Notes: generated from the sequence alone by a model not told the origin. DNA of 20,000 nt from an uncultured virus (IMG/VR IMGVR_UViG_3300028833_000080) (IMGVR_UViG_3300028833_000080), one strand, 5' to 3'. Shown: positions 986-20,000, counted from the first letter of the stretch. Translations and numbers: made by a program.

Positions 986-1003
986 TTCTTTTTCCTCCTA
1001 ATC

Positions 1004-1627: not shown

Positions 1628-1646
1628 TTATTTTTCCTCCTTGTTA

Positions 1647-3053: not shown

Positions 3054-3070
3054 TTTTTCTCTCCTTACTA

Positions 3071-4669: not shown

Positions 4670-4699
4670 AGAGATACCTCCTTTTCAATCTTCCACTTT

Positions 4700-4743
4700 A
4701 TTATAACAAAAATTTAGTGAAAAGTCAAGTACTTTCCACTAAA
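4700..4743 (-). promoter_or_regulatory. SigmaA-type promoter for the portal-head operon, overlapped by an inverted repeat
   Basis: Minus strand TTGACT-17-TATAAT with a TG extension (4728..4700). The inverted repeat TTTAGTGAAAAG (4713-4724) / CTTTCCACTAAA (4732-4743) straddles the -35 box. Confidence 0.7.
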
Positions 4744-4761
4744 AGTTTTGTTTTTATCGCG

Positions 4762-5124
4762 TTATTCCCAACCATAAGCCGCTTTCATAATATAATCATA
4801 ATCAATAAATTGTTCTTCCCAATAAGGAATAGCAATTAATGTATAACCATGAGTTAAACAATAATTTCGTTTTTTCGCATCATTATGTTTCTGTTGATAT
4901 AAGCCTCTAGCTCCACCAAATTTTGATTTAGCTTCATAATGCTGAATACCTTGATATTCAATTAAAAAATCTATATCTCCATCATCTGTAAAAACAGCGA
5001 AATCAAAACGAAGTGGCCTTCCGCTTTCTGCGACTAGATCTGGAAAACTATATTCTTCTTGAAAAGATAGTCCCGCAGCAGTTAAAACTTCTTCAATTTT
5101 TATTTCTCCTCTACTAGACCTCAT
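4762..5124 (-). CDS. Small PD-(D/E)XK / Vsr-DUF559-like endonuclease (120 aa)
   Basis: Motifs SRGE..I, LRFDF, IEYQGIQHY, D..K..YC...GY.LI.IPYW are typical of this fold. Confidence 0.7.
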   Translation of the reverse strand: MRSSRGEIKIEEVLTAAGLSFQEEYSFPDLVAESGRPLRFDFAVFTDDGDIDFLIEYQGIQHYEAKSKFGGARGLYQQKHNDAKKRNYCLTHGYTLIAIPYWEEQFIDYDYIMKAAYGWE

Positions 5125-5194
5125 AATATACTTTTCCTTCCTATCTATATTACATTTTACCTTAAATTTATTTAATAATTCCCGCCCAAAATTT

Positions 5195-6687
5195 TTAAGA
5201 AAAAAACATTAATTTACTAATATCTCTACTTTTTCTTTTCTTTCTCTTTTCTTCCTCTTGTTTAATATAATATAATCCATAAATAAAAGCTGAAAACTTA
5301 TCCTTTTTAATACTTCTTGTGCTTTGCTTAAGGATAATATTCATACCTTCATTACTTTCAACAAGATTAAGAATCTGTTCTCTTAAAATAGATGTTAATT
5401 GATATGGACGTAAATAATCATTTCTTTGGTCTGCATTAAAATTCTGTCCTTGTTTAGTACTCATAAGCTTAGTTTTAGCAGCCTGCTCATCTATTAAAAA
5501 TTTCACCTTTCCGCTTGCCATTTGTGTTTGAGCATAAGAATAAGCTTCTGTATTAATAGGAGCATTTGCTTTTATAAGATACATTGCATCTTCTTCTACC
5601 CCAATACCCTTGATTTTTTTATAAGGTGCAGTAGCCTCTTCTGATGTACCATCAGCGACACCAAAAGGAGGTAAATCTTCTCCGCTTTCTGGATCGACTT
5701 GTGCTTTAGTCATAAAATCAATAAGACCGACGCCTAAACCATTTGCATCAATAGCAAGCATTTTTGCATGATATTTATAGTATAGCTTTTTTAAATTAAT
5801 TGCTTGTATTTCAAAATCTTCTGCATCATAGGTATATATATTAACCATTGTTTTTAAATCAGCTCCTTGAGGTTGCGGGGTTGCCTTAAGAACAACAGCC
5901 TCTGTAGTACATCCCAATCTACCTACATCAACCCCTATTACATAGTAAGCTGATTTAGATGACCTTCCGCTGAATTCATATTCAGGTTGTAATAATACTC
6001 TATTTTTATCAAATTTTTCTGCTGAGAAAAAAGCACCTTCAACAGACCCCGTCCAAATTGAACGATATTCTCTATCAAATGATTCTTCATTAAATGTTCC
6101 TTGTAATCTAAGTTGATCAACAAAATCTTCAGATAACAATCCTTCAGTTACAGGGGTTTCATAAGTACCGCCCATAATCATAAAATTATCTGGATCAATA
6201 ATACTTTGAACAAGAGTCTCAATTAATTTATCATAAGCGAACGAATTTTTGAATCCCGCTGTAGTAATATATATTTGGCTCTTATTAACAACTTCCTCTA
6301 CATGACGAGTGCCATCGCTTAAATATCTATCTACGTTAGTAGTAGGAATTATAACTTCATTAAGAATATCTCCATCAATGAGAACACATTCCTCCATTAA
6401 ACCGCCAGTTCTACGCTGACCTCTAGAAGATTGTCTCGCTGCAAGGATATCAATAGAAGAGCCATTTTTAAATACATATTTAACATCATCTTTTGATTTC
6501 TTAGATACGCCTCTTGCCCAGTTAATTTCATTATTAAGTGCTGGAAGCAAAGTACAAATTTCCTCGATCTTTGCTATTGTAATACTAGCTGCTTGCTCCT
6601 TACCGCCTGTTGTAACAAATAAATGACTATTTGGATAAAGAATACATCTAAGCATAAGAGCCATCATACTTAAAAATGATTTACTAT
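5195..6687 (-). CDS. terL: Terminase large subunit, exon 2
   Basis: Frame extends upstream of the annotated ATG to ...SKSFLSMMAL. Contains Walker B-like GGLMEE, coupling motif ITTA, and RNase H-like nuclease motifs IGVDVG, AIDANG and KDKFSA. Confidence 0.9.
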
Positions 6688-7901
6688 CTTGATATTCTAT
6701 TAGATTCGCAAAATCTAATACGTTCTCTTATGAACTGCTATATGTTTCCATATAGAATAGACTATATCACACTCTAATTAAAGAGTCCTTCCATTTCGAT
6801 TTAAGGGATTCTCACCCACCGCATAAGCTTCGGTCCTACTCCTATTGCCTTTATTTATTTATCCTCGAAGGCTATTTCAGGATAGTCGTTGAAGTTTTAT
6901 TCTATATATTTAAAATGAAATCCACCATGACTTTTGTTTACTCCTCGGCATACCTTAGATATTGTACTACTATCTAAATTCAACTGTCGAGCTGCTTCAG
7001 CACATGAATCAAAATAAGCAATATGTTCATCAGTCAATGTTAATTGTTCTACTTTCTTACATGAAGAATTAGTTTTAGTATTATATAATGCAGCTTTAAC
7101 ATTTTCACTTAAAGTAATAAGTCTTAAATTTTCTAATCTATTATCAGTTTTATTTGCATTAATATGATCTATAACATAACCTTCAGGTATTTCATCAATT
7201 TGATGAAACAAACAATAAACCATTTTATGAACTACTATGTCTTTAGTGATTCCTTTATTGCTTAATCTAACTTTATAATAACCACAAGTTAAAGAGGGTT
7301 TTAATAATAATAAAGTTTCATCATTTCTAACCCTTCCTAAATTTGAAACAGAATAATTATATCCTTTAATAGATTTCCATTCTTCATTAGGTAAATCTTC
7401 TTTATAATATTCTTTTTTAGAAATAGGTTTAATTAATTTTTCTTGATGAGCATGGGTAGTATTTTCTGAATAACTTACCCATTCTAAATTAACTATATCA
7501 TTATTTAATTTGTCCCCATCTTTATGATTTACTACTGGTAGATTATTAGGGTTAGGAATGAAAGCTTCCGCCACCAATCTATGTGCATAAAACATTTTTT
7601 TAGTATTATTTTTTGATAATCTATAATATTTATATCCATGTTCTCCAATGGAACCTTTTAAAATTTTTCCTGTTAATGTATTTAATACATCTCCATTATC
7701 ATAAATAAGATAATTATCATAATCAGGTATCTGTTTTGTCATAGTGGATTCTCCTTTTTAATATATAAAATACTTACCTGCGGATTTCCTTGACGAAATA
7801 ATTTTTTCCTCAAGTATCTTCTAATATTATTTCATTTTAGGATTCCCGCAATTAAAAAGGTTTGTCCAAGTTTTTTATAAAACTTTTGGCGCAATTTATT
7901 C
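6688..7901 (-). mobile_element. Group I intron (subgroup IA-like), 1214 nt, with homing endonuclease gene in the P6 region
   Basis: The 5' exon ends in U (GCGU) and pairs with guide GCGC through a U.G wobble; the intron ends in G (6688). Core elements: P AATTGCGGGAA, Q AATCCGCAG, R TTCAACGACTA, S GATATAGTCT; P7 GACTA/TAGTC; P3 CCTTTT/GGAAGG; P9 CTATATG-GAAA-CATATAG. Splicing restores GCG TAT AGT AAA TCA (FPRAYSKSF). Confidence 0.93.
6897..7742 (-). CDS. Intron-encoded HNH homing endonuclease with two tandem NUMOD4-HNH units and a C-terminal NUMOD1/IENR1 domain (281 aa)
   Basis: HRLVAEAF..VNHKDGDKLNN..NLEW and HKMV..F..IDHINANKTDN..NLRL; EEWKSI..Y.VSNLGRVR (NUMOD4); FDSCAEAARQL...ISKVCRG (NUMOD1). 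Has its own SD AAGGAG. Confidence 0.92.
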   Translation of the reverse strand: MTKQIPDYDNYLIYDNGDVLNTLTGKILKGSIGEHGYKYYRLSKNNTKKMFYAHRLVAEAFIPNPNNLPVVNHKDGDKLNNDIVNLEWVSYSENTTHAHQEKLIKPISKKEYYKEDLPNEEWKSIKGYNYSVSNLGRVRNDETLLLLKPSLTCGYYKVRLSNKGITKDIVVHKMVYCLFHQIDEIPEGYVIDHINANKTDNRLENLRLITLSENVKAALYNTKTNSSCKKVEQLTLTDEHIAYFDSCAEAARQLNLDSSTISKVCRGVNKSHGGFHFKYIE

Positions 7902-8151
7902 ACGCTCGAGGGAAAGTTGCATAAACCACTTTATGTCGCATTACACATCTAAGAAAAATTCTTTGATAAAAATAGAAATTAAAAGTACTATCTGGCCCTT
8001 TCATAAAATCAACCAGGTAGTCAGGATACTCTCTATAAAAAGCTACAAGCTCTCTTAAATTATTTACTTGAGCTTTAAGTCTTTCTTCAGACATTCCTTG
8101 TTTAATTTCTTGGCGGGAACTAGATAAATCTAATAAATTTTGTAAACTCAT
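7902..8151 (-). CDS. terL: Terminase large subunit, exon 1
   Basis: FYFYQRIFLR (adenine-binding YQ motif) ...VYATFPRA ends at the start of Walker A. Joined with exon 2 it gives 1743 nt, or 580 aa. Confidence 0.9.
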
Positions 8152-9409: not shown

Positions 9410-10531
9410 TTAACTCCTTCCTTTAGGTAATATTTTTCCTGTTTTATTATTTCTACAGTCTTTACAGATAGAATACCATCCATCTTTACTTGTATTATTT
9501 TTAGAAAAAAAGTAATTATGACCTAACTTAATTTGACCACATCTTGAACATTTTTTCCAATAACCTTGTTCTTCTTGGGTATAATGCCATATCAACCATT
9601 CCTTTGCGGCGGTTTCAGCAATCATTTTAGGTATTTTGTTACGCCATAAAGCACTAATATATTCAACTGAATGAAGAATGTTATAGTCTTTATCCAATAA
9701 CCGCTGTATTTCACTATTGGATTTACCATCTATTTTATAAATAATAAGATCGTAATAAAGCGGGAAGGCTTCTTTAAAAGTCTTATCAACAAGAGAATCA
9801 AGATCTTCCATCATCCAATGAATATCGCTGGTAAATTTATCCCAACATTCTTCTTTTATACGAGAATAATTACATAATAAAAGAGAAACATGTTCTGGAG
9901 TGAATAGATTAATAAAACCAGTACTTTTTACATTACCTTCTGCATCTAAATAAATTTTCTCTGTTAAGTCTAGAGTAGAGAAAGTTTTTTTTGCATTTAA
10001 TAATTTAATTGGTTTACAATATGCGGCTTTAAGTACATATTGATCTTTCCTCATTTCAATTAATTGTTTTTGAAGAAGAAAAGCTTTATGACCGCGGGCG
10101 CCGGCCTTGCGAGCTTCGACCTTGTCAATTTCTTCTACGAGCTCCCGCATTCCAGGGATATTTTGAATATCTTCTTCTGTTATTCCAATTTTTGGAGAAA
10201 AGATAATATTTTTATCATTAGCTATCATACTATAAATACCATCTTCCCCATTCTCTAATCTTTCAACTAAACCTTCAAATGATAATTCTCTATCTCTTCT
10301 AGTTTTTAATCTATTATCTGTTGTTATTACATGAGAAAGTCTTTCTTTTTTATCCATTCCTGAAAAAATAATATAATTAGCAAGTTTTTCTAAATAATAG
10401 GGAGTTAATTTTTCTGAAGGAGTGTTAGCAATTATTTCTTTTGTTTTTTCAACGCATGCGGCGGGATCTGATAAAGAGAAATCCATCTTTATGTATCCAG
10501 ACCCTACTTTCTGTTGATCATTATTTTCCAT
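9410..10531 (-). CDS. Hypothetical protein with sigma region-4-like HTH and C-terminal Zn finger (373 aa)
   Basis: LIIYKIDGKSNSEIQRLL..HSVEYISALW resembles an HTH; C-terminal CSRC...KDG...CKDC. First gene of the leftward operon. Confidence 0.5.
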   Translation of the reverse strand: MENNDQQKVGSGYIKMDFSLSDPAACVEKTKEIIANTPSEKLTPYYLEKLANYIIFSGMDKKERLSHVITTDNRLKTRRDRELSFEGLVERLENGEDGIYSMIANDKNIIFSPKIGITEEDIQNIPGMRELVEEIDKVEARKAGARGHKAFLLQKQLIEMRKDQYVLKAAYCKPIKLLNAKKTFSTLDLTEKIYLDAEGNVKSTGFINLFTPEHVSLLLCNYSRIKEECWDKFTSDIHWMMEDLDSLVDKTFKEAFPLYYDLIIYKIDGKSNSEIQRLLDKDYNILHSVEYISALWRNKIPKMIAETAAKEWLIWHYTQEEQGYWKKCSRCGQIKLGHNYFFSKNNTSKDGWYSICKDCRNNKTGKILPKGRS

Positions 10532-10567
10532 TTGTTCTACGTCTCCTTAGTTTTATTTTACAATTAT

Positions 10568-10596
10568 ATTATACCATAAAATTTTTTCCTTGTCAA
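10568..10596 (-). promoter_or_regulatory. Consensus sigmaA promoter for the leftward packaging operon
   Basis: Minus strand TTGACA-17-TATAAT with TGG extended -10, about 35 nt upstream of the ATG at 10531. Confidence 0.85.
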
Positions 10597-10672
10597 GTTT
10601 GGTCAAGGATAATTTATTGAATTTTTTAAACGAAAACGAAAATTCTTATAGGTGTGCATATATTTTTTAAGC

Positions 10673-10799
10673 GGGAAGTGGGAAAGGGAGAAGGGGTATA
10701 TATTCCGTAAATTGAATTTGAAAAAATATTTGGAGGGGGTTTGGACGAGCAAAACCCAGTTTCAAAAATTTTTCTGGCAAAATCCCAAAATTATACCCC
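10673..10799. repeat. G-tract cluster and long imperfect palindrome at the strand switch
   Basis: GGG-AAGT-GGG-AAA-GGG-AGAA-GGGG (10673-10696). GGGGTATA (10693-10700) / TATACCCC (10792-10799) enclose TTTGAAA/TTTCAAA and GGGTTT/AAACCC, centred near 10746. Confidence 0.6.
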
Positions 10800-10841
10800 C
10801 GGTAGTTCCAGAAAAAGCTGGCGCTAAAAAATTTGGCTGCA

Positions 10842-10874
10842 CGGCCCATCCCCGGTCAAGATGGGCCGATTTTT
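10842..10874 (+). repeat. CG-rich hairpin, partial copy 0 of the composite element
   Basis: CGGCCCATC-9nt-GATGGGCCG followed by ATTTTT. Confidence 0.6.
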
Positions 10875-11001
10875 TAATAGAACAGAGGTTTAAGGAGTTT
10901 TTTACTTCGAATCAATAAGAAGTAAGAAAATTTAATTTTCACTTTTTTACTCTTTATCGACAAATATTAAAAAAATTTTTAAAATTTTTTTAAATAAGTA
11001 A

Positions 11002-11030
11002 TTGACTTTTTTCTACTATTATGCTATTAT
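11002..11030 (+). promoter_or_regulatory. SigmaA-type promoter (first rightward promoter)
   Basis: TTGACT-17-TATTAT with TG extension and an A/T-tract UP element, followed by AGAGAGAGAGGT. Confidence 0.75.
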
Positions 11031-11055
11031 AATTATAGAGAGAGAGGTAAGATAA

Positions 11056-11220
11056 ATGACAAAGTTTATTGTTAAAATTACAAATGATTTACTTGAAACT
11101 AGAATCTATACGACAGAAGCTACAACAAAAGAAAATGCTATTGCTAAGTGTTTAAGACTTTATAAATTTAATGGTTGTCCAGGAAAGGTTATGAAGACAG
11201 TTGTAATTGTTCTAAATTAA
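11056..11220 (+). CDS. Small hypothetical protein (54 aa, MTKFIVKITNDLLE...)
   Basis: Below the ORF-track cutoff. SD GAGAGGT with own promoter; open to TAA at 11220. Confidence 0.75.
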   Translation: MTKFIVKITNDLLETRIYTTEATTKENAIAKCLRLYKFNGCPGKVMKTVVIVLN

Positions 11221-11283
11221 AAGATTGACAATAACCTCAAGAAAATGATATAATAAAATCAAAGAGAAAGGTAGATAGAAATT

Positions 11284-11427
11284 ATGATTACAAAAATATT
11301 CGCTTATAAAGGTCAGGCTATGAATTATTATAAAAAGGTCTTAGCAAATAAAAATATTAATTTTTGTAATTGCGGTTTTGACTTCAAGCTTGGTAAGTAT
11401 ACAGTTTGCTACGACTATAAAAAATAA
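11284..11427 (+). CDS. Small basic hypothetical protein (47 aa, MITKIFAYKGQA...)
   Basis: Promoter TTGACA-18-TATAAT (11225-11254) and SD GAAAGGT. Confidence 0.7.
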   Translation: MITKIFAYKGQAMNYYKKVLANKNINFCNCGFDFKLGKYTVCYDYKK

Positions 11428-11452
11428 CTTTTTATCAAGAGGAGAATATAAA

Positions 11453-11545
11453 ATGACTATTTTGTGTTTTGAAACTTTTGTGTTTGTAATTATTATCTGG
11501 AAAGCTTGGGACAATCATAGAAAACCGCCTAAATACTGTGTATAA
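11453..11545 (+). CDS. Putative single-pass membrane peptide (30 aa, MTILCFETFVFVIIIWKAW...)
   Basis: SD GAGGAG; hydrophobic N-terminal half and basic tail. Confidence 0.5.
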   Translation: MTILCFETFVFVIIIWKAWDNHRKPPKYCV

Positions 11546-11561
11546 TTATACATTAATTGTG

Positions 11562-11696
11562 TGGCGCGCGCACTATCGCACTTGCGCCAAATTTTTAAAA
11601 CTTGGGCAGATTGCACAATTTGAGTATTGAATTTTTGTATATTTTGCTAGTTGTATTATTCCTAAAATAATGTTATTATAATTATAGGAAGAGAGG
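11562..11696 (+). repeat. Composite element copy 1 (short type, 16-bp dyad spacer)
   Basis: TGGCGCG/TGCGCCA hairpin, AATTTT, TGCACAA(11612)-16-TTGTATA, 9 bp, TTGTAT-17-TATTAT, AGAGAGGT. Confidence 0.8.
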
Positions 11697-11704
11697 TGCT
11701 AAAG

Positions 11705-12142
11705 ATGATGACAATTAAAGAAATCAATTTTGATATGGACGGAACAATCGCTAATCTCTATGGGGTTGAGAATTGGTTAGACTATTTAATGGCAAAGGAT
11801 ACAACACCTTACGCAATCGCAAGACCTTTGATTAACCTTTCAGCACTTGCAAGAGTTCTTAACAGACTTCAGAGAGAAGGTTATACAATCGGTGTTATCA
11901 GTTGGTTAGCAAAGAATTCTGATGATGATTATAACAAGAGAGTAGATGAAGTTAAGCGGGAATGGCTTGCTAGACATCTTCCTTCAGTTCAGTGGGATAA
12001 AATAAACATCGTGGCTTATGGAACACCTAAAAGCACTTGCGGTGAAGGGGTTTTATTCGATGACGAAGAACCAAATCGCAAAGAATGGAAAGGAATTGCA
12101 TACGATGTAGATAATATCTTTGAAGTTTTAAAGGCTCTGTAA
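11705..12142 (+). CDS. HAD-superfamily phosphatase, 5'(3')-deoxyribonucleotidase-like
   Basis: Motif I FDMDGT, motif II S (ISW), motif III K, motif IV LFDD. Start moved to ATG 11705 to fit the SD at 11690-11696. Confidence 0.8.
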   Translation: MMTIKEINFDMDGTIANLYGVENWLDYLMAKDTTPYAIARPLINLSALARVLNRLQREGYTIGVISWLAKNSDDDYNKRVDEVKREWLARHLPSVQWDKINIVAYGTPKSTCGEGVLFDDEEPNRKEWKGIAYDVDNIFEVLKAL

Positions 12143-12157
12143 ATCAGAGCCTTTTTT
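12130..12157 (+). terminator. Intrinsic terminator
   Basis: AAAGGCTCTG-TAAAT-CAGAGCCTTT plus T tract. Confidence 0.85.
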
Positions 12158-12167
12158 AATGCGGGCG

Positions 12168-12332
12168 CGGCGCCTGCGGTAGGATGGCGCCGAATTTTTA
12201 TTATACTACACTGTTCGAGGTTTTGTCAATAGTAAAATTAACCAAGGATAACCACTTTCCGCTCCTAAAATTTGTGCATAATTACCTATTGCATTCTAGA
12301 TGGGGGTATGCTATTATAATATCAGAGAGAGG
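12168..12332. repeat. Composite element copy 2 (long type, with leftward promoter)
   Basis: CGGCGCC/GGCGCCG hairpin; minus-strand TTGACA-18-TATAAT (12229..12200); TAACCAA-26-TTGTGCA (12239-12278); TTGCAT-17-TATTAT; AGAGAGAGG. Confidence 0.85.
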
Positions 12333-12729
12333 GAATGAGAAAAAATTCCTAGGTTTTTCGGAGATAGCCTCCTTCCTAACGCGTTCTGATTAGTCAGAAC
12401 TAGAAGTATAATGGATAGGGAAAAATCCATCGGCTCTTCTCTTTACTAAGGAATAAGGACCGAGCCTACAGGGCGGGCGGGGTGTAAGAGTCATTGAAAC
12501 CTCCTGCGAAACTAACTGAGATGCCCATGAAATTCGGTGGTGCCTTCCGCAAGGCAGTTTCTCCTAAAAGATATTGCGGGGTCAGTCAACAGCTCACCAA
12601 ACGAGCCAAAATACCAGTTGAGCTAGCGAGCAAGGTCGGGCAAGGTGCTTGAGTGCTGTGCCCATGAACAGCCAAGAAAGAGAGTAAACCAATATGACGA
12701 AACAGGCGTTTAAATAACGCCTGTTTTTT
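12324..12729 (+). ncRNA. Putative ~400-nt structured non-coding RNA, family not recognised
   Basis: Bounded by a promoter and a terminator, no credible ORF, GC-richer than flanks. Hairpins include GTTCTGA/TCAGAAC, ATGGAT/ATCCAT, GGCTC/GAGCC, TGCCTT/AAGGCA and two GGGCR/TGCCC stems. Confidence 0.7.
12700..12729 (+). terminator. Intrinsic terminator
   Basis: AAACAGGCGTT-TAAAT-AACGCCTGTTT plus T tract. Confidence 0.88.
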
Positions 12730-12899
12730 GGCGCCGCGAGTGCGTTCGCACGAGCGTCGAATTTTCATTATACCATAGCATTACACATTTTGTCAATAGC
12801 ATTTTTGCACAAAGATCTAGGTAAAAACATCCTGAAATTTGTGCAACATTTTACTTGACACTATAAAAATTTTTTAGTATTATAATTATAGAGAGAGGG
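12729..12899. repeat. Composite element copy 3 (long type)
   Basis: TGGCGC/GCGTCG hairpin with inner GTGCG-TT-CGCAC; minus TTGACA-18-TATAAT (12796..12767); TGCACAA-26-TTGTGCA (12806-12845); TTGACA-17-TATTAT; AGAGAGAGG. Confidence 0.88.
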
Positions 12900-12963
12900 A
12901 GATACGGTATTAGCCTTCTACAGACCAAAGGCATCTCCTAAACATCAATCGGAGGTATTTATC

Positions 12964-13146
12964 ATGACACATAGACAGTTTATTAAAGCCAATTTTGAAG
13001 TTCTCGCTGAAACTGAAAACGCAATTCTTTTCATTGCTTATGGCGAGATGTGTTGTGAAATCAATGGACAGTCATTTGATTGCCATTCTGTTGATGAGTT
13101 CAATGAAATGGTTGAATTCTTTGGAGACGATACTTTCGAGGAGTAA
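12964..13146 (+). CDS. Small acidic hypothetical protein (60 aa)
   Basis: SD GGAGGT; ORF track. Confidence 0.8.
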   Translation: MTHRQFIKANFEVLAETENAILFIAYGEMCCEINGQSFDCHSVDEFNEMVEFFGDDTFEE

Positions 13147-13199
13147 AAAATTTAAAAAAGATATTGACATAATCCTAGGGTTATGATAATATAATTATA

Positions 13200-13350
13200 G
13201 AGATGAGGTAAGGCAACCCGAGAGAAAGGGAAAAGCGCATAGTTGCCAAGTAAGTCCAAACCGACAAAGACATCTCGCCGCATGGTCGCTCCGTTGTGCG
13301 GAATATAAATGTGAACCAAGTGGACAACCTTGCAAGTCCAACTAGGCGGA
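13200..13350 (+). ncRNA. Structured 5' leader or sRNA
   Basis: Follows promoter TTGACA-17-TAATAT (13164-13192). Stems GAGATG/CATCTC, GGCAAC/GTTGCC, CCGCAT/GTGCGG and TGGAC/GTCCA lie about 185 nt ahead of the next ATG. Confidence 0.5.
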
Positions 13351-13384
13351 GTGAATAGGTAATAACAAAAGAGAGGTAATTAAC

Positions 13385-13570
13385 ATGGTTGAAAAAATTT
13401 ATTACATTGAAAATTCTTATGATTTAAGTATGGCTCTTGGTGAAATTGAAGAGAAATTTCCTTGTTTTGTGGATAGAGAGTATATTGAAATGGATTGCTC
13501 CAAAGTCACCATTAAAGCAAGGCAGGAAGATATGGCAAGTATTGAAAATATCTTAGCACCTTGTATGTAA
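13385..13570 (+). CDS. Small acidic hypothetical protein (61 aa)
   Basis: SD AGAGAGGT; followed by terminator AGGCGGGAA/TTCCCGCCT. Confidence 0.8.
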   Translation: MVEKIYYIENSYDLSMALGEIEEKFPCFVDREYIEMDCSKVTIKARQEDMASIENILAPCM

Positions 13571-13571
13571 G

Positions 13572-13770
13572 AAAAAGGCGGGAACCACTTCCCGCCTCTC
13601 TTTTTGCCTCGGCGACGCGCGATGGGCCGGCGCGCGTCGAAATTTTATTATATCATCTCGCTGTAGATTTTGTCAATAGGCAAATGCAACAAAAAACTAG
13701 GTAAGGGGATCCCGCAAATTTGTGCAATTTTACTACTTGCAAACCGCTTTAAAATATGTTATATTATAAT
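13572..13770. repeat. Terminator plus composite element copy 4 (long type)
   Basis: CGACGCGCG-9-CGCGCGTCG (13613-13639); minus TTGACA-18-TATAAT (13676..13647); GCAACAA-27-TTGTGCA (13686-13726); -35 TTGCAA at 13737. Confidence 0.88.
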
Positions 13771-13922
13771 TACAGAAAGGAAAGACGTGGTGGATACCTT
13801 TCAAAGAGATAATTGGCAATTCTTATTGAAAGTAAGGTTTTGCAAAGCCAAGGTTGCAAGATTTGAAAAATCAATAACTACCCAATGGAAGCCACAGGAT
13901 TAAAACAAGAGAGGTAGATAAA

Positions 13923-14123
13923 ATGATTAAACTTAAAATTATGTGCGTACTTTGTGGAAATTTCCACTCTGTAATGGTTAAAAAAGAAGACTATGTTAAA
14001 TATTTAGAAGGCGAGCTTGTTCAAAAAGCGTTCCCTTATTTAAATGCAACTCAAAGAGAGCAGATTATTTCTGGACTTTGCCCGAAATGCCAAGAAGATA
14101 TGTTTGGAAGTGAGAAAGAATAA
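13923..14123 (+). CDS. Small Zn-ribbon protein (66 aa)
   Basis: CVLC ... CPKC; SD AGAGAGGT. Confidence 0.8.
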   Translation: MIKLKIMCVLCGNFHSVMVKKEDYVKYLEGELVQKAFPYLNATQREQIISGLCPKCQEDMFGSEKE

Positions 14124-14252
14124 ATGTATAGACTAGTTTTTCAAGATGGATACAAAAGTCATTGGACAGATAATTTCAATTTGATTTTGGAAGGTGCAAA
14201 CCTTTTTAATGCAAAAATTGAAAAAAGAGTTGACACACAAGAAAATTTATGA
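14124..14252 (+). CDS. Small hypothetical protein (42 aa, MYRLVFQDGYKSHW...)
   Basis: ATG directly after the previous TAA. The 3' end contains the next promoter's -35 box (TTGACA-17-TATAAT, 14230-14258). Confidence 0.6.
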   Translation: MYRLVFQDGYKSHWTDNFNLILEGANLFNAKIEKRVDTQENL

Positions 14253-14289
14253 TATAATAATTATAACAAAAGAAAGAGAGGTAGTTCAA

Positions 14290-14487
14290 ATGGTAAAACT
14301 CACTTATGACGTTATGGTTAATGGTAGAGCAATCGCTAACAATGTTCCTACTTATGCAGAAGCTGAGCGAATTAAGGGCGAAAGCGTTGGTGCTACTTTA
14401 GTAAGGCGGTATGTGCCTGTCGAAAATGAATATACCTTATGCCCAAGGACTCCTAAGAAAAATGCTATGAGAGTTCAGGCAAGATAA
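14290..14487 (+). CDS. Small hypothetical protein (65 aa, MVKLTYDV...)
   Basis: Start reassigned to ATG 14290 behind SD GAGAGGT and the promoter at 14230. Confidence 0.8.
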   Translation: MVKLTYDVMVNGRAIANNVPTYAEAERIKGESVGATLVRRYVPVENEYTLCPRTPKKNAMRVQAR

Positions 14488-14500
14488 ATAAAGAATCTAA

Positions 14501-14701
14501 AGGTGCGGAAGAAATTCCGCACCTCTCTTTTTGGCGCGCCGTGCGGGATCCGCCCTGGCGCGTTTTTTCGATATACCATCCCCTTGCAGATTTTTATACT
14601 AGCAAATTGCACAATTAGACTAGATACCGGCGCCCGCATTTTTGTGCAATTTGTCTATTGTTTTATTTATTTTCTTATGATATTATAATTACAAGAGAGG
14701 T
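14501..14701. repeat. Terminator plus composite element copy 5 (long type, leftward promoter decayed)
   Basis: Terminator AGGTGCGGAA/TTCCGCACCT; hairpin GGCGCGCC/GGCGCGTT; TGCACAA-27-TTGTGCA (14608-14648); TTGTTT-17-TATTAT; AGAGAGGT. Confidence 0.85.
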
Positions 14702-14709
14702 AATGAATT

Positions 14710-14880
14710 ATGATGAACATGAACGTAGAACAATGGGTAGGAAATTTTAAAGGTCATAGAACTGTAAAAATTATTTATGCTAATACCAATAAAGAAGCAA
14801 ATCTCTTTTGGTTGGGTTTCAGATATAATATAGTAGTTAAAGTTAAAGTAAGCGGCGATTGTGCTTATTTATGGGTATAA
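14710..14880 (+). CDS. Small hypothetical protein (56 aa, MMNMNVEQWVGNFKGH...)
   Basis: SD AGAGAGGT; open to TAA at 14880; not in the ORF track. Confidence 0.7.
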   Translation: MMNMNVEQWVGNFKGHRTVKIIYANTNKEANLFWLGFRYNIVVKVKVSGDCAYLWV

Positions 14881-14893
14881 GGAGAGGTATAAA

Positions 14894-15106
14894 ATGAAAT
14901 ATAAATTTGAATGGAATGACATCAGAGCAGTGGTTACTTTAATCAATGTAATCTTGATTATGAAGTATGGACTTACAGTTGCATGGGTTGGAATGGTAAT
15001 TGCGGGAATCGGTATTATAAAAGATATTGCAGTAGATAGAAAAATTAACGGTTTTGTTATGCATAGTGCTAATATTATGCTCAATTTATTCTTTTTAATA
15101 CAATAG
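14894..15106 (+). CDS. Small membrane protein (70 aa)
   Basis: SD GGAGAGGT before ATG 14894; two to three hydrophobic segments. Confidence 0.78.
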   Translation: MKYKFEWNDIRAVVTLINVILIMKYGLTVAWVGMVIAGIGIIKDIAVDRKINGFVMHSANIMLNLFFLIQ

Positions 15107-15125
15107 ATAAAGAATATAGCGGGAG

Positions 15126-15291
15126 GCCCCTAAAATAGGGGGCTTTTTTAATTGCGCGGCGCGCTTAGGGCTCGCCCTGCGCCGCATTTTTGCTAGTAGT
15201 CATATTTACCAAAATTTGCTATGAATTTTTATACATTTTGTCTATTGTAATTATTCCCATAATTTGATAATATAAATATAGAAAGAGAGGT
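15126..15291 (+). repeat. Terminator plus composite element copy 6 (short type)
   Basis: Terminator GCCCC/GGGGC plus T tract; hairpin GCGGCGCG/TGCGCCGC; TTACCAA-16-TTATACA (15206-15235); TTGTAA-17-TAATAT; AGAGAGGT. Confidence 0.8.
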
Positions 15292-15299
15292 GCTTTAAT

Positions 15300-15563
15300 A
15301 TGACATTAATGACAACTGATGAGATTTTAGAAAAAGCAAAAGAAAAACTTTTAAAAGAATATGAGGAAACTATTAAATATTCAATCCGTACTGAAATACA
15401 TGAAATAAAGCAAACTATTCCATTATCAGAGAAAGTTCAAGAAAGCATCACTAGAGGTTGGGCTATTGTAATGTTTGCGCAAGACCTTGGGGTAAAATAT
15501 AGTGACATAATAGATTGTTATATTGTATTTAAGGCGGCTATGGAAAAGTTATTGACAAATTAA
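15300..15563 (+). CDS. Hypothetical protein (87 aa)
   Basis: SD AGAGAGGT; 3' end overlaps promoter TTGACA-17-TATAAT (15552-15580). Confidence 0.8.
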   Translation: MTLMTTDEILEKAKEKLLKEYEETIKYSIRTEIHEIKQTIPLSEKVQESITRGWAIVMFAQDLGVKYSDIIDCYIVFKAAMEKLLTN

Positions 15564-15606
15564 AAATAATTTGTTATAATATTTTTAGAAAGAGAGGTTT
15601 TCTAAA

Positions 15607-15765
15607 ATGTATGATAGACGCAAAGATATGACTAAAAAGGCATGGAAAGAGCAACAGAAGAAAAACCGCATCTTAAATGGTTTTAACACAGGTACAAGGG
15701 ATATGAAGTCAGCAAAATATCCTAGCAGACAAGAGCAGAAAAGAGAGGTAAGAAATTATGAGTAA
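15607..15765 (+). CDS. Small basic hypothetical protein (52 aa, MYDRRKDMTKKAWK...)
   Basis: SD AGAGAGGT, own promoter, overlaps the next gene start. Confidence 0.72.
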   Translation: MYDRRKDMTKKAWKEQQKKNRILNGFNTGTRDMKSAKYPSRQEQKREVRNYE

Positions 15766-15973
15766 GAATGAAGAAAATGTATTAAGAGCAAATATTCTTG
15801 GCGGAATGAATTCTTATATTCTTGAAGTGATTGGGGATGATGATATTACAGACCGCTGGCTAATGTTTGGAATCCCCGATGGATGTGATGAAGAAGAATT
15901 AATGGAAATCGCAGAAGATGAAAGTGAATTCTTAAGAATTAGTAATTTATGGAATAATTTAATTAGAGAATAA
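15758..15973 (+). CDS. Small acidic hypothetical protein (71 aa)
   Basis: SD AGAGAGGT; ORF track. Confidence 0.8.
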   Translation: MSKNEENVLRANILGGMNSYILEVIGDDDITDRWLMFGIPDGCDEEELMEIAEDESEFLRISNLWNNLIRE

Positions 15974-15990
15974 AGGAGGATTTTAAAAAT

Positions 15991-16239
15991 ATGATTGTAG
16001 ATATTGAATATAGTATTGTAGGTAACTATAGACATCGTGTAGATTTAGATGATTATGCAGATGAAATTTTTGATACATATGGAATGACATGGGAAGAATT
16101 ATCTGATGATGAGCGAGATGAATTTATTAAAGATTTAGGATATCTTAAGTTTGGTGCAGCAGAATCAGAATGTGAATATACCTTAGGGAGTGTACAAGCT
16201 TGGGAAGAAGAAAATGGAACAGAACATTGGTTTAAATAG
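15991..16239 (+). CDS. Small acidic hypothetical protein (82 aa)
   Basis: SD AAGGAGG; ORF track. Confidence 0.8.
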   Translation: MIVDIEYSIVGNYRHRVDLDDYADEIFDTYGMTWEELSDDERDEFIKDLGYLKFGAAESECEYTLGSVQAWEEENGTEHWFK

Positions 16240-16266
16240 AGGATAAGAATAGAAGAGGTGTGAAAA

Positions 16267-16542
16267 ATGAAATATTATAAAATTACTTGTTCAAATGGAT
16301 TCTGCGGTTGCGATGAAGATTTTTATGTTCAAGCAGAAGAGAATGAAATTGATGACTTAGCCAATGATATTTTTCAAAATGATTATAGCTTCTATGAACC
16401 CGATGGTAGATTTATTTATGGAAAAAGTTGGGGTGATGATATAACAGATGATGAAGTAGAAGAGTATCAAGAAAACTGTGAATTCTACTATACAGAAATT
16501 TCTGAAGAAGAATATAATGAACATGAATCAGAGTGGGGATAA
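16267..16542 (+). CDS. Very acidic, aromatic-rich hypothetical protein (91 aa)
   Basis: SD GAGGTG; about 28 D/E versus 4 K/R. Confidence 0.8.
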   Translation: MKYYKITCSNGFCGCDEDFYVQAEENEIDDLANDIFQNDYSFYEPDGRFIYGKSWGDDITDDEVEEYQENCEFYYTEISEEEYNEHESEWG

Positions 16543-16697
16543 AATAACACCCACTCTTTTGCGGCGCGACCTTGGTCAAGCTGCGCCGCAATTTTTATAG
16601 ATAGATATATTTACCAAATTTTGAAACGAAATTTTGTGCATTTTGTATATTGCTTTTGTTCCTATAATGTAGTATTATAGTTACATGAAAGAGAGGT
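16530..16697 (+). repeat. Terminator plus composite element copy 7 (short type)
   Basis: Terminator AGAGTGGG/CCCACTCT; hairpin TTGCGGCGCG/TGCGCCGCAA; TTACCAA-16-TTGTGCA (16611-16640); TTGCTT-17-TATTAT; AGAGAGGT. Confidence 0.85.
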
Positions 16698-16705
16698 ACA
16701 AAAAA

Positions 16706-16996
16706 ATGACAAAAAAATGGGTTAAAACAGTAGAAAAGAATGGACGTACATTTAGACTTATTTTTGAGCGCGATTACTTAGATTGTCTTTGGTGTTATGG
16801 GTATGAAATATATAGACCCAAAAAGCATTTTCTTGATTTTTCTTATCAAAGCCAAATATTTTGTTTTTGGACAAGTAATGAAGATACTATAATAGAACAG
16901 GCTATTGAAGAAATCAATAATATTTTTATTGATGAAGAAACAGTAAAAAGAGCTGAAAAAGCACTTGACAAATTTGCTGATTATACTGTATCATAA
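16706..16996 (+). CDS. Hypothetical protein (96 aa, MTKKWVKTVE...)
   Basis: Start reassigned to ATG 16706 behind the SD. The 3' end contains TTGACA (16965) of the next promoter. Confidence 0.8.
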   Translation: MTKKWVKTVEKNGRTFRLIFERDYLDCLWCYGYEIYRPKKHFLDFSYQSQIFCFWTSNEDTIIEQAIEEINNIFIDEETVKRAEKALDKFADYTVS

Positions 16997-17025
16997 TTAT
17001 ATAAAAAGCGAGGAAGGAACAACAA

Positions 17026-17310
17026 ATGAAACTACTAATTGATATACCCGACATTACTTACAAAAGAACGCTTGAAATTGGAGCACTTCAAATATGCAAA
17101 GATGAAGATATTTACCGTTGGATAGCCAAGGGTACTCCCATTCCCGACAATATTACTAATGGTGAATTTATAACAATGTTTATACCACATGAAAGTATTA
17201 CTGTTTGCAAAGAAAAACAGTTTGTAATAGTTATTGGCAAAGACTATCTTTTTCAACATCATTATCCGTTGGATTGGTGGAACGCAAAGTACAAGGGGGC
17301 GAGTAAATGA
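17026..17310 (+). CDS. Hypothetical protein (94 aa)
   Basis: SD GAGGAAGGA; ORF track; coupled to the next gene by ATGA-type overlap. Confidence 0.78.
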   Translation: MKLLIDIPDITYKRTLEIGALQICKDEDIYRWIAKGTPIPDNITNGEFITMFIPHESITVCKEKQFVIVIGKDYLFQHHYPLDWWNAKYKGASK

Positions 17311-17582
17311 AAGTTGTAATTGAGTTACCTGAAAATTGGGAAGAATCTAAAAGTAAACTTAGAGCACTTGTAGATGCTTTTCAAGATGCTAAACCCTATG
17401 AAGATTTTGATTTTATCTTAGATAAAATAACAAAAGAAATAAAAGAACAGTATGGTGACTGTGACTTATGCGAGTATTATGAAGATTATGATTTTGAAGA
17501 AAATGATATTTCTTCTTATAATTACGTAGCAAGTATAACAGATATTTTAGATATTATTAATGCATATAAAGATGGTCGATAG
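17307..17582 (+). CDS. Acidic hypothetical protein (91 aa) with CDLC
   Basis: ORF track; followed by terminator ATGGTCGATAG/CTATCGACCAT (17572-17599). Confidence 0.78.
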   Translation: MKVVIELPENWEESKSKLRALVDAFQDAKPYEDFDFILDKITKEIKEQYGDCDLCEYYEDYDFEENDISSYNYVASITDILDIINAYKDGR

Positions 17583-17649
17583 GAAAATCTATCGACCATT
17601 TGTTCTTCCACCGGTTGAAAAATTCTAAAATTTTTGATATAATATAATT

Positions 17650-17910
17650 GTAATGAAAAAGAAATAAAAATTTTTCTCATTGTAAAATTTATTTAAGTGT
17701 TTTAAATAAATCTAATCTGATTTTATTTAAAAACTATCTAAAAATTCTTAATATTCTAGTTGAAATGATAGCCGGTATCTATCATTTCTGTCCGAGTTTC
17801 TAGACCAAGGACTCGTTGAAGTAGTTTAATAAGGATTTTTTAAATAGCTAGATTTAATAATTTTTCCCCATAATTGAGCGCGCCTTTTGCGAACGTAAAA
17901 GGCGCGAATT
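17650..17910 (+). ncRNA. Putative AT-rich structured ncRNA (~260 nt)
   Basis: Promoter TTGAAA-17-TATAAT (17615-17643), with no SD or ORF downstream. Stems ATTTATTTAA/TTAAATAAAT, GAAATGATAG/CTATCATTTC, CGAGT/ACTCG and AAATCTA/TAGATTT. Confidence 0.55.
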
Positions 17911-18019
17911 TCCATTATATCATACCTCAGCAGATCTTGTCAATAGGAATTTTGCACAAAAAATTTTTATTTTTAATCCTAAAATTTGACTTGACTTTTA
18001 TAAAAAATTATATTATAAT
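17879..18019. repeat. Composite element copy 8 (long type, right half-site truncated)
   Basis: CGCGCCTTTTGC/GTAAAAGGCGCG; minus TTGACA-18-TATAAT (17943..17914); TGCACAA(17953)-26-TTG; TTGACT-17-TATAAT (17991-18019). Confidence 0.82.
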
Positions 18020-18116
18020 AAATACATAAGATAAAGGAAACACGTAAACGCTTAGAGCGAGAGTCTTTACCTTGCCAAGGGCAGAGTGGTTAACAAATAA
18101 AAAATAAAAAAAGTTG

Positions 18117-18312
18117 TTGACATTTCCAAAATCTTATGATATAATCTTTATATAAGATAACAAGTGGTTAATCGTAATCGTGCGGGTAGTGGTGTGAACA
18201 GAAACCCAGTGCACGGGGTGCAGAAACAGAAACGTAGCGAGGCAGATATACGGAAAAAAGTTGCAAATTTTTTCAAAAACCGCTTGACATCTTATAAAAG
18301 ATATGATATAAT
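18117..18312 (+). promoter_or_regulatory. Two further tandem consensus promoters
   Basis: TTGACA-17-TATAAT with TG extension at 18117-18145 and 18284-18312, each followed by AAGATAA. Confidence 0.85.
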
Positions 18313-18368
18313 AAATATATCAAAGATAACAAATAACAATTTTATTCAAAGAAAGGTGGTATTACATT

Positions 18369-18719
18369 ATGACAGATAAGAAGATGACAAAGAAGGACAT
18401 GTTTGCACTTATTAAGGAAAGAGTGGCAGATAACGAGGACATGGTTGCTTTTATCGACCACGAGATTGAGTTACTCAATAAGAAGGCTAATGGCTCAAGA
18501 AAGCCTACCGCAAAGCAGATTGAGAACGAAGCACTTAAGAATGATGTTCTTGCAGTTCTTTCCGCAGAAGGTAAGACAGTTTCACAGATTATCGCATCTG
18601 ATGAAAAGTTTGCAGGTATGTCCAATCAGAAGATGACCGCACTCTTAAAGATGCTTGTTGCTGATGGTTCAGCCGAGAAGGTAGTTGACAAAAAGACTTC
18701 TTTCTTCAAGTTGGCTTAG
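18369..18719 (+). CDS. Probable winged-helix DNA-binding protein (116 aa)
   Basis: C-terminal half has a helix-TVSQII-helix(SNQKMTALLKMLVADG)-beta-hairpin pattern; SD GAAAGGTGG; high-expression codon bias. Confidence 0.65.
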   Translation: MTDKKMTKKDMFALIKERVADNEDMVAFIDHEIELLNKKANGSRKPTAKQIENEALKNDVLAVLSAEGKTVSQIIASDEKFAGMSNQKMTALLKMLVADGSAEKVVDKKTSFFKLA

Positions 18720-18788
18720 TCCCTCTTTTGCTCTAGGGGTAAGGGTAATGAAACTTGCCCCTAATGATTCTTGTACGAGGTAGAAAAA

Positions 18789-19118
18789 ATGGATAAAGAA
18801 AAGTTAATCAAGTCAATTATGGCGGATTGTAAAGCCCAAGGTGAACCCGTCACAAGAGAAGAAGCAGAAGAAATGGCGGAAATGGAACTTAAATCGCATC
18901 AAATAAAGAAATACGAACAAGAATCCGTTACCAAGGTGCGAAAAGTCAAAGACCGCAAAGTAGATGAAGAAAAAAAGAATTTACTTTCTTGTATTAAAGT
19001 TTTAATGGAAGGACTAGGGGCAGAAAAACTTACCCTTAAAACTGAAACAGAATTGTCTTTCCACTACAATAATAATACATATACCATTAAATTAACTAAA
19101 CACAGACCACCTAAATAA
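18789..19118 (+). CDS. Hypothetical protein (109 aa, MDKEKLIKSIM...)
   Basis: SD GAGGT before ATG 18789. Confidence 0.78.
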   Translation: MDKEKLIKSIMADCKAQGEPVTREEAEEMAEMELKSHQIKKYEQESVTKVRKVKDRKVDEEKKNLLSCIKVLMEGLGAEKLTLKTETELSFHYNNNTYTIKLTKHRPPK

Positions 19119-19130
19119 GGCGGTTTTTGT

Positions 19131-19202
19131 GGGCATGTCGCCTAAAGGTATGGCACCAAACTTTTAATTTGGTAAATGAGAGTTCGATTCTCTTCATGCC
19201 CA
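19131..19202 (+). tRNA. tRNA-Lys (anticodon UUU), CCA not encoded
   Basis: Acceptor GGGCATG/CATGCCC plus A; D arm GCC/GGC; anticodon stem CCAAA/TTTGG with loop CT-TTT-AA; T arm GAGAG-TTCGATT-CTCTT. Confidence 0.85.
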
Positions 19203-19217
19203 TTGAAAAGGATTTTT

Positions 19218-19390
19218 AAAGCATGGTTTCCGCCATGCTTTTCTTTTTTGACGTCGCGCTTACAACCCAAGCGCGACGTAATTTTTGTCAAGATGGCAAG
19301 TTGCACAATTTTTATTTCCAATTTTTGTGCATTTTCATCTCTTGTTTTTTCCTAAAAATTTTATTATAATTATTTTATAGAAAGAGAGGT
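19218..19390 (+). repeat. Terminator plus composite element copy 9 (short type)
   Basis: Terminator AAAGCATGG/CCATGCTTT; hairpin ACGTCGCGCTT/AAGCGCGACGT; relic TGTCAA; TGCACAA-16-TTGTGCA (19302-19331); TTGTTT-17-TATAAT; AGAGAGGT. Confidence 0.88.
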
Positions 19391-19396
19391 TGTATT

Positions 19397-19906
19397 ATGT
19401 GCGAATTAAAAGGTATGACAGAATTAAATCTTGCGGTAACTAAGGTTCTTGCCCCTTTTGGTATTTCAAAGGCTTTATTAAGTGATACCTATGAATATCG
19501 TTATGTTGATGAAAGTGTGCTATTTAAATTAACTGAAGAAATTGAGGATGATTTTTTCAATGAGTTTATTGCAGAACGTTTTAATTATAAATGCAAATAT
19601 CCTTTTATTATTAGTCTTTTGCATGAAGTAGGACATCACAAGGCTAATGATGAAATTGAGGGTGCTATCTATGAATTTTGTATCAGAGAAAAAGCCCGTA
19701 TTTGCGAGGAAATGGAAACCGCAGACGAGAAAAGAGCCAAGGAATTAGAATGGCAATATTTTAATTTACCTGATGAAATAATGGCTACCCAATGGGCTGT
19801 AAATTACGCAATCAGACACCCAAAGAAAATTGAAAAAATGTGGGAAAGAACCTTGATTGCTTTGAAACAATTTTACGAAATAAATGAAATAATTAATGAG
19901 GATTAA
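19397..19906 (+). CDS. Putative zincin metallopeptidase (HExxH; ImmA/IrrE-like pattern), 169 aa
   Basis: SLLHEVGH followed by a downstream E..A..WA helix (PDEIMATQWA). Confidence 0.65.
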   Translation: MCELKGMTELNLAVTKVLAPFGISKALLSDTYEYRYVDESVLFKLTEEIEDDFFNEFIAERFNYKCKYPFIISLLHEVGHHKANDEIEGAIYEFCIREKARICEEMETADEKRAKELEWQYFNLPDEIMATQWAVNYAIRHPKKIEKMWERTLIALKQFYEINEIINED

Positions 19907-19911
19907 ATAAC

Positions 19912-20000
19912 AGGTGGCGGGAAACCGCCACCTCTCTTATACTTTATTAAATAACACTTGATATGTTTTGCGGGCGGCACACGTGCCAAACAGCCCGCAT
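19912..20000 (+). repeat. Terminator plus start of composite element copy 10
   Basis: Terminator AGGTGGCGG-GAAA-CCGCCACCT; hairpin TGCGGGC/GCCCGCA with inner GGCAC/GTGCC, cut by the window edge. Confidence 0.7.

Follow-up and report, generated by a model that had tools for sequence, protein, structure and literature searches.

The uncultured virus sequence IMGVR_UViG_3300028833_000080 (IMG/VR; 20,000 nucleotides, the whole of which is called here the window) carries, from position 10,842 to its end, repeated copies of an intergenic element. The constant part of this element is a core formed by a GC palindrome (CG-N3-CG-N13-CG-N3-CG, or the same with N23 in the middle), about 70 bp of AT-rich DNA, and a one-way TCCYRAAA box; promoters and a TGCACAA..TTGTGCA dyad slide around this core. 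Our preferred, though tentative, reading of the sequence is that a protein clamp on palindrome and box would occlude RNA polymerase across the 70 bp, shutting the early promoters off together. To judge by portal similarity, the window is DNA of an SPbeta-lineage gut or rumen phage, and the region concerned is presumed to be the early one, because of its dense host-type promoters and small genes.

Hairpins were gathered without requiring any downstream box, giving 207 dereplicated hairpins from 71 loci. A TCCYR motif starts 69 to 72 bp after the hairpin in 172 of them, and other 9-bp windows hold 0 to 13. The rule applies to 81 of 84 copies of the long layout, 34 of 35 of the short one and 59 of the 88 others (promoter-less on the left), and to palindromes of both 27 and 37 bp. 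The box takes four positions with respect to the rightward -35: about 35, 26 or 12 bp upstream of it, or 9 bp within it. Since the copies share ancestry and have also been duplicated inside genomes, these counts do not stand for independent events.

The arms of the palindrome covary. When copies were anchored on the box, the right arm had a perfect left partner (7 of 7) in 124 of 223 copies, compared to 11.6 with the arm of another copy. In the 74 palindromes of 27 bp, the two inner CGs are present in 96% and 92%, and the three middle bases vary in compensatory pairs, G.T wobble being rare. Mismatch counts (G.T versus A.C, 10 versus 7 and 5 versus 2) gave no clear strand preference of the hairpin. 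In an IMG/VR scan that did not require arm complementarity, and where distinct hits were counted, the arms were fully complementary in 57 of the 90 distinct hits at 69 to 71 bp among the matches listed (20 different triplets), compared to 0 of 39 in the control at 79 to 81 bp. A first scan found the left arm in 60 of 122 among the matches listed, the remainder being at the level of the 59 to 61 bp control (56 hits). Palindrome lengths (n = 151) were 27 bp in 74 cases, 24 to 25 in 28, 36 to 38 in 19, 28 in 8, and 29 to 35 in only 2. Because these lengths cluster a whole helical turn apart, binding to the duplex is suggested.

In the window, the nine full and two partial copies located in the initial annotation are all present, far above chance (Table 1). 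Comparison of positions 10,532 to 20,000 with 500 dinucleotide shuffles gave 3 exact dyads for a mean of 0.002, 11 dyad half-sites for 1.4, 10 perfect sigma-A promoters for 0.014, and 13 AGAGAGG motifs for 0.76. The box, which had been overlooked, lies 69 to 71 bp past the hairpin in all nine full copies, as the variant GCCCGCA in copy 14533; none was found downstream of partial copy 10842. An upstream terminator does accompany most copies (seven of nine, the exceptions being 11562 and 17879), and the leftward promoter described as optional is perfect in four (12168, 12729, 13613 and 17879). The dyad, attributed to each copy, is exact in three of the nine (12729, 14533 and 19251) and has one exact half in five; neither half is exact in 15156, and the right half is absent from 17879. 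As to AGAGAGG, considered earlier as belonging to the element, it follows seven of the nine copies, yet it occurs six more times outside full copies, and is therefore the general ribosome-binding or leader motif of the phage.

Nor is the element centred on the dyad, as had been thought. Among 59 loci found through the gene of a winged-helix protein (18369-18719 in the window), a dyad with at most one mismatch was present in 24, and the core in 58, on the strand of the winged-helix gene, that is, the early strand. The dyad varies by clade, and other loci place other motifs in the same space, a few of them palindromes that we take to be LexA-box-like. Dyads were surveyed upstream of an anchor gene (PHROG 5767) in 33 dereplicated groups of relatives. 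Exact dyads had a spacer of 16 in 31 of 62 cases and of 26 in 18; the late side was free of them in these groups. In five long records they occupy a single zone of 8 to 13 kb; record G003 has a second cluster, at 135.3 to 142.5 kb, far from the early region, where no core element was called.

The promoters found at 98 dyads obey a strict geometry: half-site and -35 are separated by 9, 10, 19 or 20 bp in every one of the 71 rightward promoters, and in 51 of the 53 leftward ones. The -35 is perfect in 50 of the 53 leftward promoters, compared to 20 of the 71 rightward ones, and the two promoter arms are mirror copies of one consensus. This phasing, together with the lack of extra complementarity between the arms (see below), is the mark of a protein that binds the duplex in phase with RNA polymerase. 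Overall, a leftward promoter is present at 89 of the 207 hairpins, and in 21 of 34 cases a distance of 8 bp separates its -10 from the palindrome. Some cassettes are 'empty': in 24 of the 207 cases, the -10 of a rightward promoter ends 0 to 7 bp before the next palindrome, so that two promoters face each other across it (loci L131, L157, L162, L181, L015, L020 and L071). We also observed terminator hairpins with a TGCACAA half-site as their loop (L071 at 8470 and 9223, L015 at 7047, and L054 at 8989, in upstream-strand positions).

The core is confined to one early region and one strand, and is spread through the phage family. No core was found on the late side of 50 anchor loci, and in the complete genome G002 ten copies are grouped in a single zone of about 10 kb, two further candidates being weak. 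In two sets of 301 genomes sampled from the host group, the core is at chance (2 and 7 genomes match, and controls give as many or more). It is present in phage phAss-1, and a shorter variant (hairpin of 16 to 20 nt, 72 to 75 bp, then the box) occurs as two clear copies in each of the Enterococcus phages EF1, VRE9_2 and VRE9_4. One loose match in Sundance and two in Enterocloster phage PMBT24 are near control level. No description of the element was found in the published literature, searched in open papers without subscription journals or supplements; in its main text, the phAss-1 paper does not use the words 'repeat', 'promoter' or 'hairpin' (PMC10607447). The core pattern can serve as a marker of the early region and of cassette boundaries in the family. 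It offers a precise and mutable grammar for early-gene control in widespread uncultured gut and rumen phages of about 140 kb, whose early genes are almost all unknown.

Our best candidate for a binder of the core is the winged-helix protein. Its 116 residues are modelled (predicted local distance difference test score, pLDDT, 91.5) as an N-terminal helical hairpin followed by a C-terminal winged helix. It is a member of the largest protein family in the element regions of relatives, often with two to four copies and often first behind an element. Its Atlas neighbours are unnamed viral clusters, and EF1 and phAss-1 encode distant homologues. A role of the same protein as binder of the dyad is not supported: the dyad is one which is found in a minority of its loci and with whose presence the recognition helix does not covary. 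Since cultured phages (EF1, VRE9_2 and VRE9_4) carry the core variant, and a distant homologue of the protein is encoded among cultured Enterococcus phages, the question is open to bench work.

We picture the element as two layers. The first is the constant core; the second, packed into and around the 70 bp, consists of variable host sigma-A promoters and of clade-specific operators such as the TGCACAA dyad. A phage protein complex would bind both anchors of the core, cover the DNA between them, and exclude RNA polymerase, so that some ten strong early promoters would be silenced together once the binding protein accumulates. Occlusion needs no fixed promoter phase, which fits the four offsets of the box. 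If the winged-helix protein is the clamp, negative feedback would result, because its gene sits behind an element. The dyad would then be a second site, phased to both -35 boxes and probably tuning the weak rightward promoters, and cassette gain or loss at elements would be a by-product of short-homology recombination. The coordinately regulated array suggested in the initial annotation is plausible, with the geometry in its support.

Several observations weigh against such a clamp. Complementary arms with almost no G.T wobble indicate real base-pairing, which plain binding to the duplex does not need, and a distance of 70±1 bp without variants of ±10 bp is not obviously needed by a repressor. 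The near-perfect leftward -35 is left unexplained. Shared descent and within-genome copying mean that the counts overstate independence. As for the protein, a fold search gave no hit at E ≤ 0.001, the sequence hits are weak (Hop2, E = 0.003; BlaI, E = 0.037), the recognition helix does not track the dyad, and co-occurrence with the core is a family trait rather than independent evidence, the loci having been found through that very gene.

The initial annotation also considered the array as possibly shufflable. The nearest sequence record overlaps the window only at 1-5283, and shuffling was therefore examined in relatives rather than at the nine copies of the window. Among 101 breaks in 22 pairs of close relatives, 34 rows of insertions or deletions (indels) were collapsed by eye to 16 events, and 67 replacement rows were left out. 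Three of the 16 distinct indels run from element to element, compared to 0.09 expected from random placement, and 7 of the 32 indel ends fall within elements, compared to 2.4 expected. As to the 13 others, their junctions, judged by eye, are promoter-to-promoter in three cases, ribosome-binding site to ribosome-binding site in four, repeat-free in four, at an element edge in one, and unclear in one. Close relatives keep their cargo mostly in the same order, apart from genes gained or lost and a single one that has moved. Since the three element-to-element crossovers occurred at three different points, most indels lie elsewhere and order is mostly kept, the element appears to be a cassette boundary used by ordinary short-homology recombination, and not a dedicated shuffling site. 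A site-specific recombination site of the att, attC or pdif type was rejected: to the differing crossover points is added a scan of G002 (74 of its 115 open reading frames (ORFs) of at least 100 aa, the other 41 being mostly structural or on the opposite strand), in which no integrase, recombinase, HUH or reverse-transcriptase family was found. As regards excised circles, among the joints listed in contigs assembled from two RNA runs of one sample and one DNA run of the probable source sample, the sides measured 21 to 54 letters, except for one cyclic RNA contig; these joints speak neither for circles nor against them.

A DNA-transaction site would explain the rigid distance and the pairing of the arms almost as well as a clamp does. 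A protein bound to the box would act 70 bp away on a hairpin or cruciform of the palindrome, to nick, to prime, to stall DNA entry or to start recombination; we regard this as possible but rather unlikely. The core would then be, with the same reserve as to its likelihood, the target of an undescribed phage 'ruler' machine at some ten same-strand early sites, controlling DNA entry, priming or programmed breakage, and the 70-bp gap, which has the size of one RNA polymerase footprint, would be a landing pad for interchangeable operators. Besides the lack of helical-turn variants, this explanation accounts for the matching of each arm with its own partner, for the constant CG at positions 1-2 and 6-7 of the stem, between which changes are compensatory, for a single orientation and a single genome zone, and for independence from the position of the rightward promoter. 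Opening of the leftward promoter beside the palindrome would help extrusion, and among the proteins of G002 are GyrB, one that is RuvC-like, and an AAA_24 protein, presumably a Sak4-type annealase. Against it stand the scattered crossover points and the 13 indels that are not element-to-element, the absence of integrase, HUH or reverse-transcriptase families in the G002 ORFs scanned, the step between 27 and 37 bp, which suits duplex binding, and loops of 9 to 11 nt, which are long for cruciform extrusion. If this holds, a large family of gut and rumen phages would share a cis-element of a new class.

That the element is an ordinary cassette of the promoter/stem-loop (PeSL) type, in which the palindrome is a second terminator, the rest a promoter, and the fixed spacing a leftover of element copying, seems improbable to us. 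The order of terminator, promoter and ribosome-binding site, the hypervariable cargo of small ORFs and the indels at such signals all fit, as does the T-rich tail after the hairpin. This tail has a median of 4 T in the following 8 nt, though, and G.T wobble is rare in the stem; a normal terminator is already found upstream of the hairpin in seven of nine window copies, and the 70 bp are kept across four promoter layouts and unrelated fillers. PeSLs have no such box or dyad in the parts of their descriptions consulted. A further alternative, that the leftward promoter makes a two-hairpin RNA of 60 to 70 nt (antisense to the upstream cassette, or a decoy) as the main function of the element, is more doubtful still. 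It would explain the perfect leftward -35 and the set distance from leftward -10 to palindrome; the predicted RNAs fold with z of -2.8 to -4.3, and an RNA-library contig ends at 12759, beside the predicted leftward start, contigs showing neither strand nor ends. Such folding scores are expected, however, of any terminator plus palindrome, the 70-bp rule holds at the many hairpins without a leftward promoter, and the box lies outside that transcript. Finally, an Frpo-like single-stranded-DNA promoter, whose mirror-image arms would fold into one long hairpin, is very improbable and largely refuted, because the two arms, in spite of their mirror-symmetric consensus, pair no better within an element than when swapped within the genome (P = 0.12 to 0.54), and spacers change in whole helical turns. 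Possible resemblances to DnaA, Spo0A, CodY, Rex, Noc, Chi and Z-alpha were considered and dropped as poor fits.

Table 1. Element copies and neighbouring features of the window (copies are named by the approximate start of their hairpin)
Feature	Coordinates	Strand	Details
PHROG 5767 'sigma factor' gene	9410..10531	-	Heads packaging/head block; context, outside the element; anchor for locating relatives
Partial copy 10842	10842..10868	+	27-bp CG palindrome only; box, dyad and promoter absent at usual distances
Copy 11562, short form	11562..11696	+	Hairpin from 11562; TGCACAA 11612; weak right half 11635; promoter 11651-11679; box 11660 within promoter spacer; AGAGAGG 11690; no upstream terminator
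HAD/NT5C-type nucleotidase	11708-12142		Commonest cargo gene, in 62 fetched loci including redundant ones
Copy 12168, long form	12131..12332	+	Terminator 12131-12157; palindrome 12168-12192; perfect leftward promoter 12229-12200; box 12263; TTGTGCA 12272; rightward promoter 12289-12317; AGAGAGG 12326, no ORF directly behind
Copy 12729, long form	12700..12898	+	Terminator 12700-12728; imperfect palindrome about 12729-12759; perfect leftward promoter 12796-12767; exact dyad 12806/12839 (spacer 26); box 12830; rightward promoter 12855-12883; AGAGAGG 12892
Copy 13613, long form	13576..13765	+	Terminator from 13576; palindrome 13613-13639; perfect leftward promoter 13676-13647; box 13710; TTGTGCA 13720; rightward promoter 13737-13765; without AGAGAGG
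Copy 14533, long form, decayed leftward promoter	14501..14700	+	Bidirectional terminator 14501-14524; palindrome 14535-14562; exact dyad 14608/14642 (spacer 27); variant box 14632; promoter 14658-14686; AGAGAGG 14694
Copy 15156, short form	15127..15290	+	Terminator from 15127; palindrome 15156-15185; degenerate dyad; box 15255; AGAGAGG 15284; no rightward promoter under the calling rule used
Copy 16559, short form	16531..16696	+	Terminator-like hairpin about 16531-16556 (direct reading); palindrome 16561-16589; TTGTGCA 16634; promoter 16650-16678; box 16660 within spacer; AGAGAGG 16690
Copy 17879, long form without right dyad half	17879..18019	+	Palindrome 17879-17906; perfect leftward promoter 17943-17914; TGCACAA 17953; box 17977; rightward promoter 17991-18019, first in a tandem of three ahead of winged-helix gene
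Winged-helix protein, 116 aa	18369-18719	+	N-terminal helical hairpin and C-terminal winged helix; weak match to PHROG 19455
tRNA-Lys(TTT)	19130-19203		Inside early region
Copy 19251, short form	19218..19389	+	Terminator 19218-19241; palindrome 19252-19278; leftward -35 only (GTCAA 19287); exact dyad 19302/19325 (spacer 16); promoter 19342-19370; box 19350 within spacer; AGAGAGG 19383
Partial copy 19969	19969..20000	+	CG-rich hairpin; preceding terminator 19912-19933; truncated by window end

The window is divided in two: small ORFs occupy the plus strand from 11056, and the minus strand up to 10531 carries head, portal, terminase and PHROG 5767 genes; GC skew changes sign near 10.6 kb. The named relatives of the portal are phAss-1 (38%), Enterococcus EF1/VRE9 (32%), Sundance and SPbeta-like phages; relatives of the anchor gene fall in the same set. 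Sheep gut metagenomes, one of which may be the source, were the best-matching sequencing runs, and a metagenome search for close relatives gave a best protein identity of 63%. Between the two divergent blocks, a non-coding motif with G- and C-runs (10715-10800) is kept in at least 11 relatives and is possibly a packaging or genome-end signal. At 5195-8151, an HNH endonuclease gene (6897-7742) seems to interrupt the terminase large subunit in the manner of a phage intron, and each of the two pieces matches PHROG 15503. The complete relative G002 has flagellin-like and FliD-like genes at 55.0-55.8 kb and 89.5-90.8 kb.

Structured RNAs had been proposed as part of the cargo. This was not borne out: folding z was -1.33 and -1.82 in two intervals and -0.5 to -0.8 in three others, and no Rfam family was found except tRNA-Lys. 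The first of these intervals (12330-12700) consists of 370 nt without a good ORF behind a promoter, with no Rfam match and no homologue among the fetched loci; positions 12341-12759 are covered by RNA-library contigs from one sample. The second (13200-13365) is a non-coding leader, possibly a small RNA, of which 122 nt are matched at 76% in locus L095. At 18025-18296, a cyclic RNA-library contig has a depth of 155, compared to 3 to 16 for its neighbours, and its 12 joint letters are the reverse complement of 18139-18150; this may reflect a pair of abundant small RNAs, an RNA circle or an artefact of the library.

Several known systems combine some of these features. In the lambda OR and phi29 p4/p6 regions, divergent promoters have sites spaced in helical turns, once per genome; the helical spacing is alike, and these systems are not known to have a fixed palindrome-box distance. 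In the pMV158-family double-strand origin and in the target hairpins of diversity-generating retroelements, a GC-rich stem lies at a set distance from a protein-binding motif. The element differs by its ten or so copies per genome and by having no conserved nick sequence in the loop, and no Rep/HUH or reverse transcriptase was detected in the G002 ORFs scanned.

Closer parallels are PeSL and SPBRE. In T4-type phages, PeSLs are repeated units of stem-loop, sigma70-type promoter and ribosome-binding site between small variable genes, and recombination between units, with crossovers at varied points, produces indels (PMC2839356; PMC4122927); mini-circles are published at about 1 in 10^5 virions (PMC2839356). 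The present element shares with them the strong sigma70-type early promoter, the upstream stem-loop, the downstream ribosome-binding site, the repetition in a hypervariable region and, in relatives, recombination between short shared signals at varied points. It differs in that the stem-loop is usually additional to a terminator and has a fixed half-site, a quantised length and a box 70 bp away, in its divergent promoters and phased dyad, and in its setting, a siphovirus-type lineage with a Gram-positive host rather than T4-type myoviruses of Gram-negative hosts. SPBRE is a 15-bp motif of Bacillus phage SPbeta, bound by the master repressor MrpR, of tyrosine-recombinase fold, and maintains lysogeny (PMC10516654). 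Here the broad lineage is the same by portal similarity, about ten intergenic copies likewise lie at promoters, and a repeated site read by one phage protein provides a precedent in this lineage for a repeated operator. Unlike SPBRE, our site is bipartite and spans about 105 bp, and its candidate binder is a winged-helix protein; the G002 scan gave no integrase or recombinase Pfam family, and all 21 genome hits were metagenome-assembled bins, with no isolate prophage among them. A palindrome-box distance of 70±1 bp, independent of promoter position, is absent from the parts of the PeSL and SPBRE descriptions consulted, and it implies a protein complex. We conclude that the element belongs to neither kind, although it bounds cassettes in the way of PeSL and, like SPBRE, acts as a control site in repeated copies.

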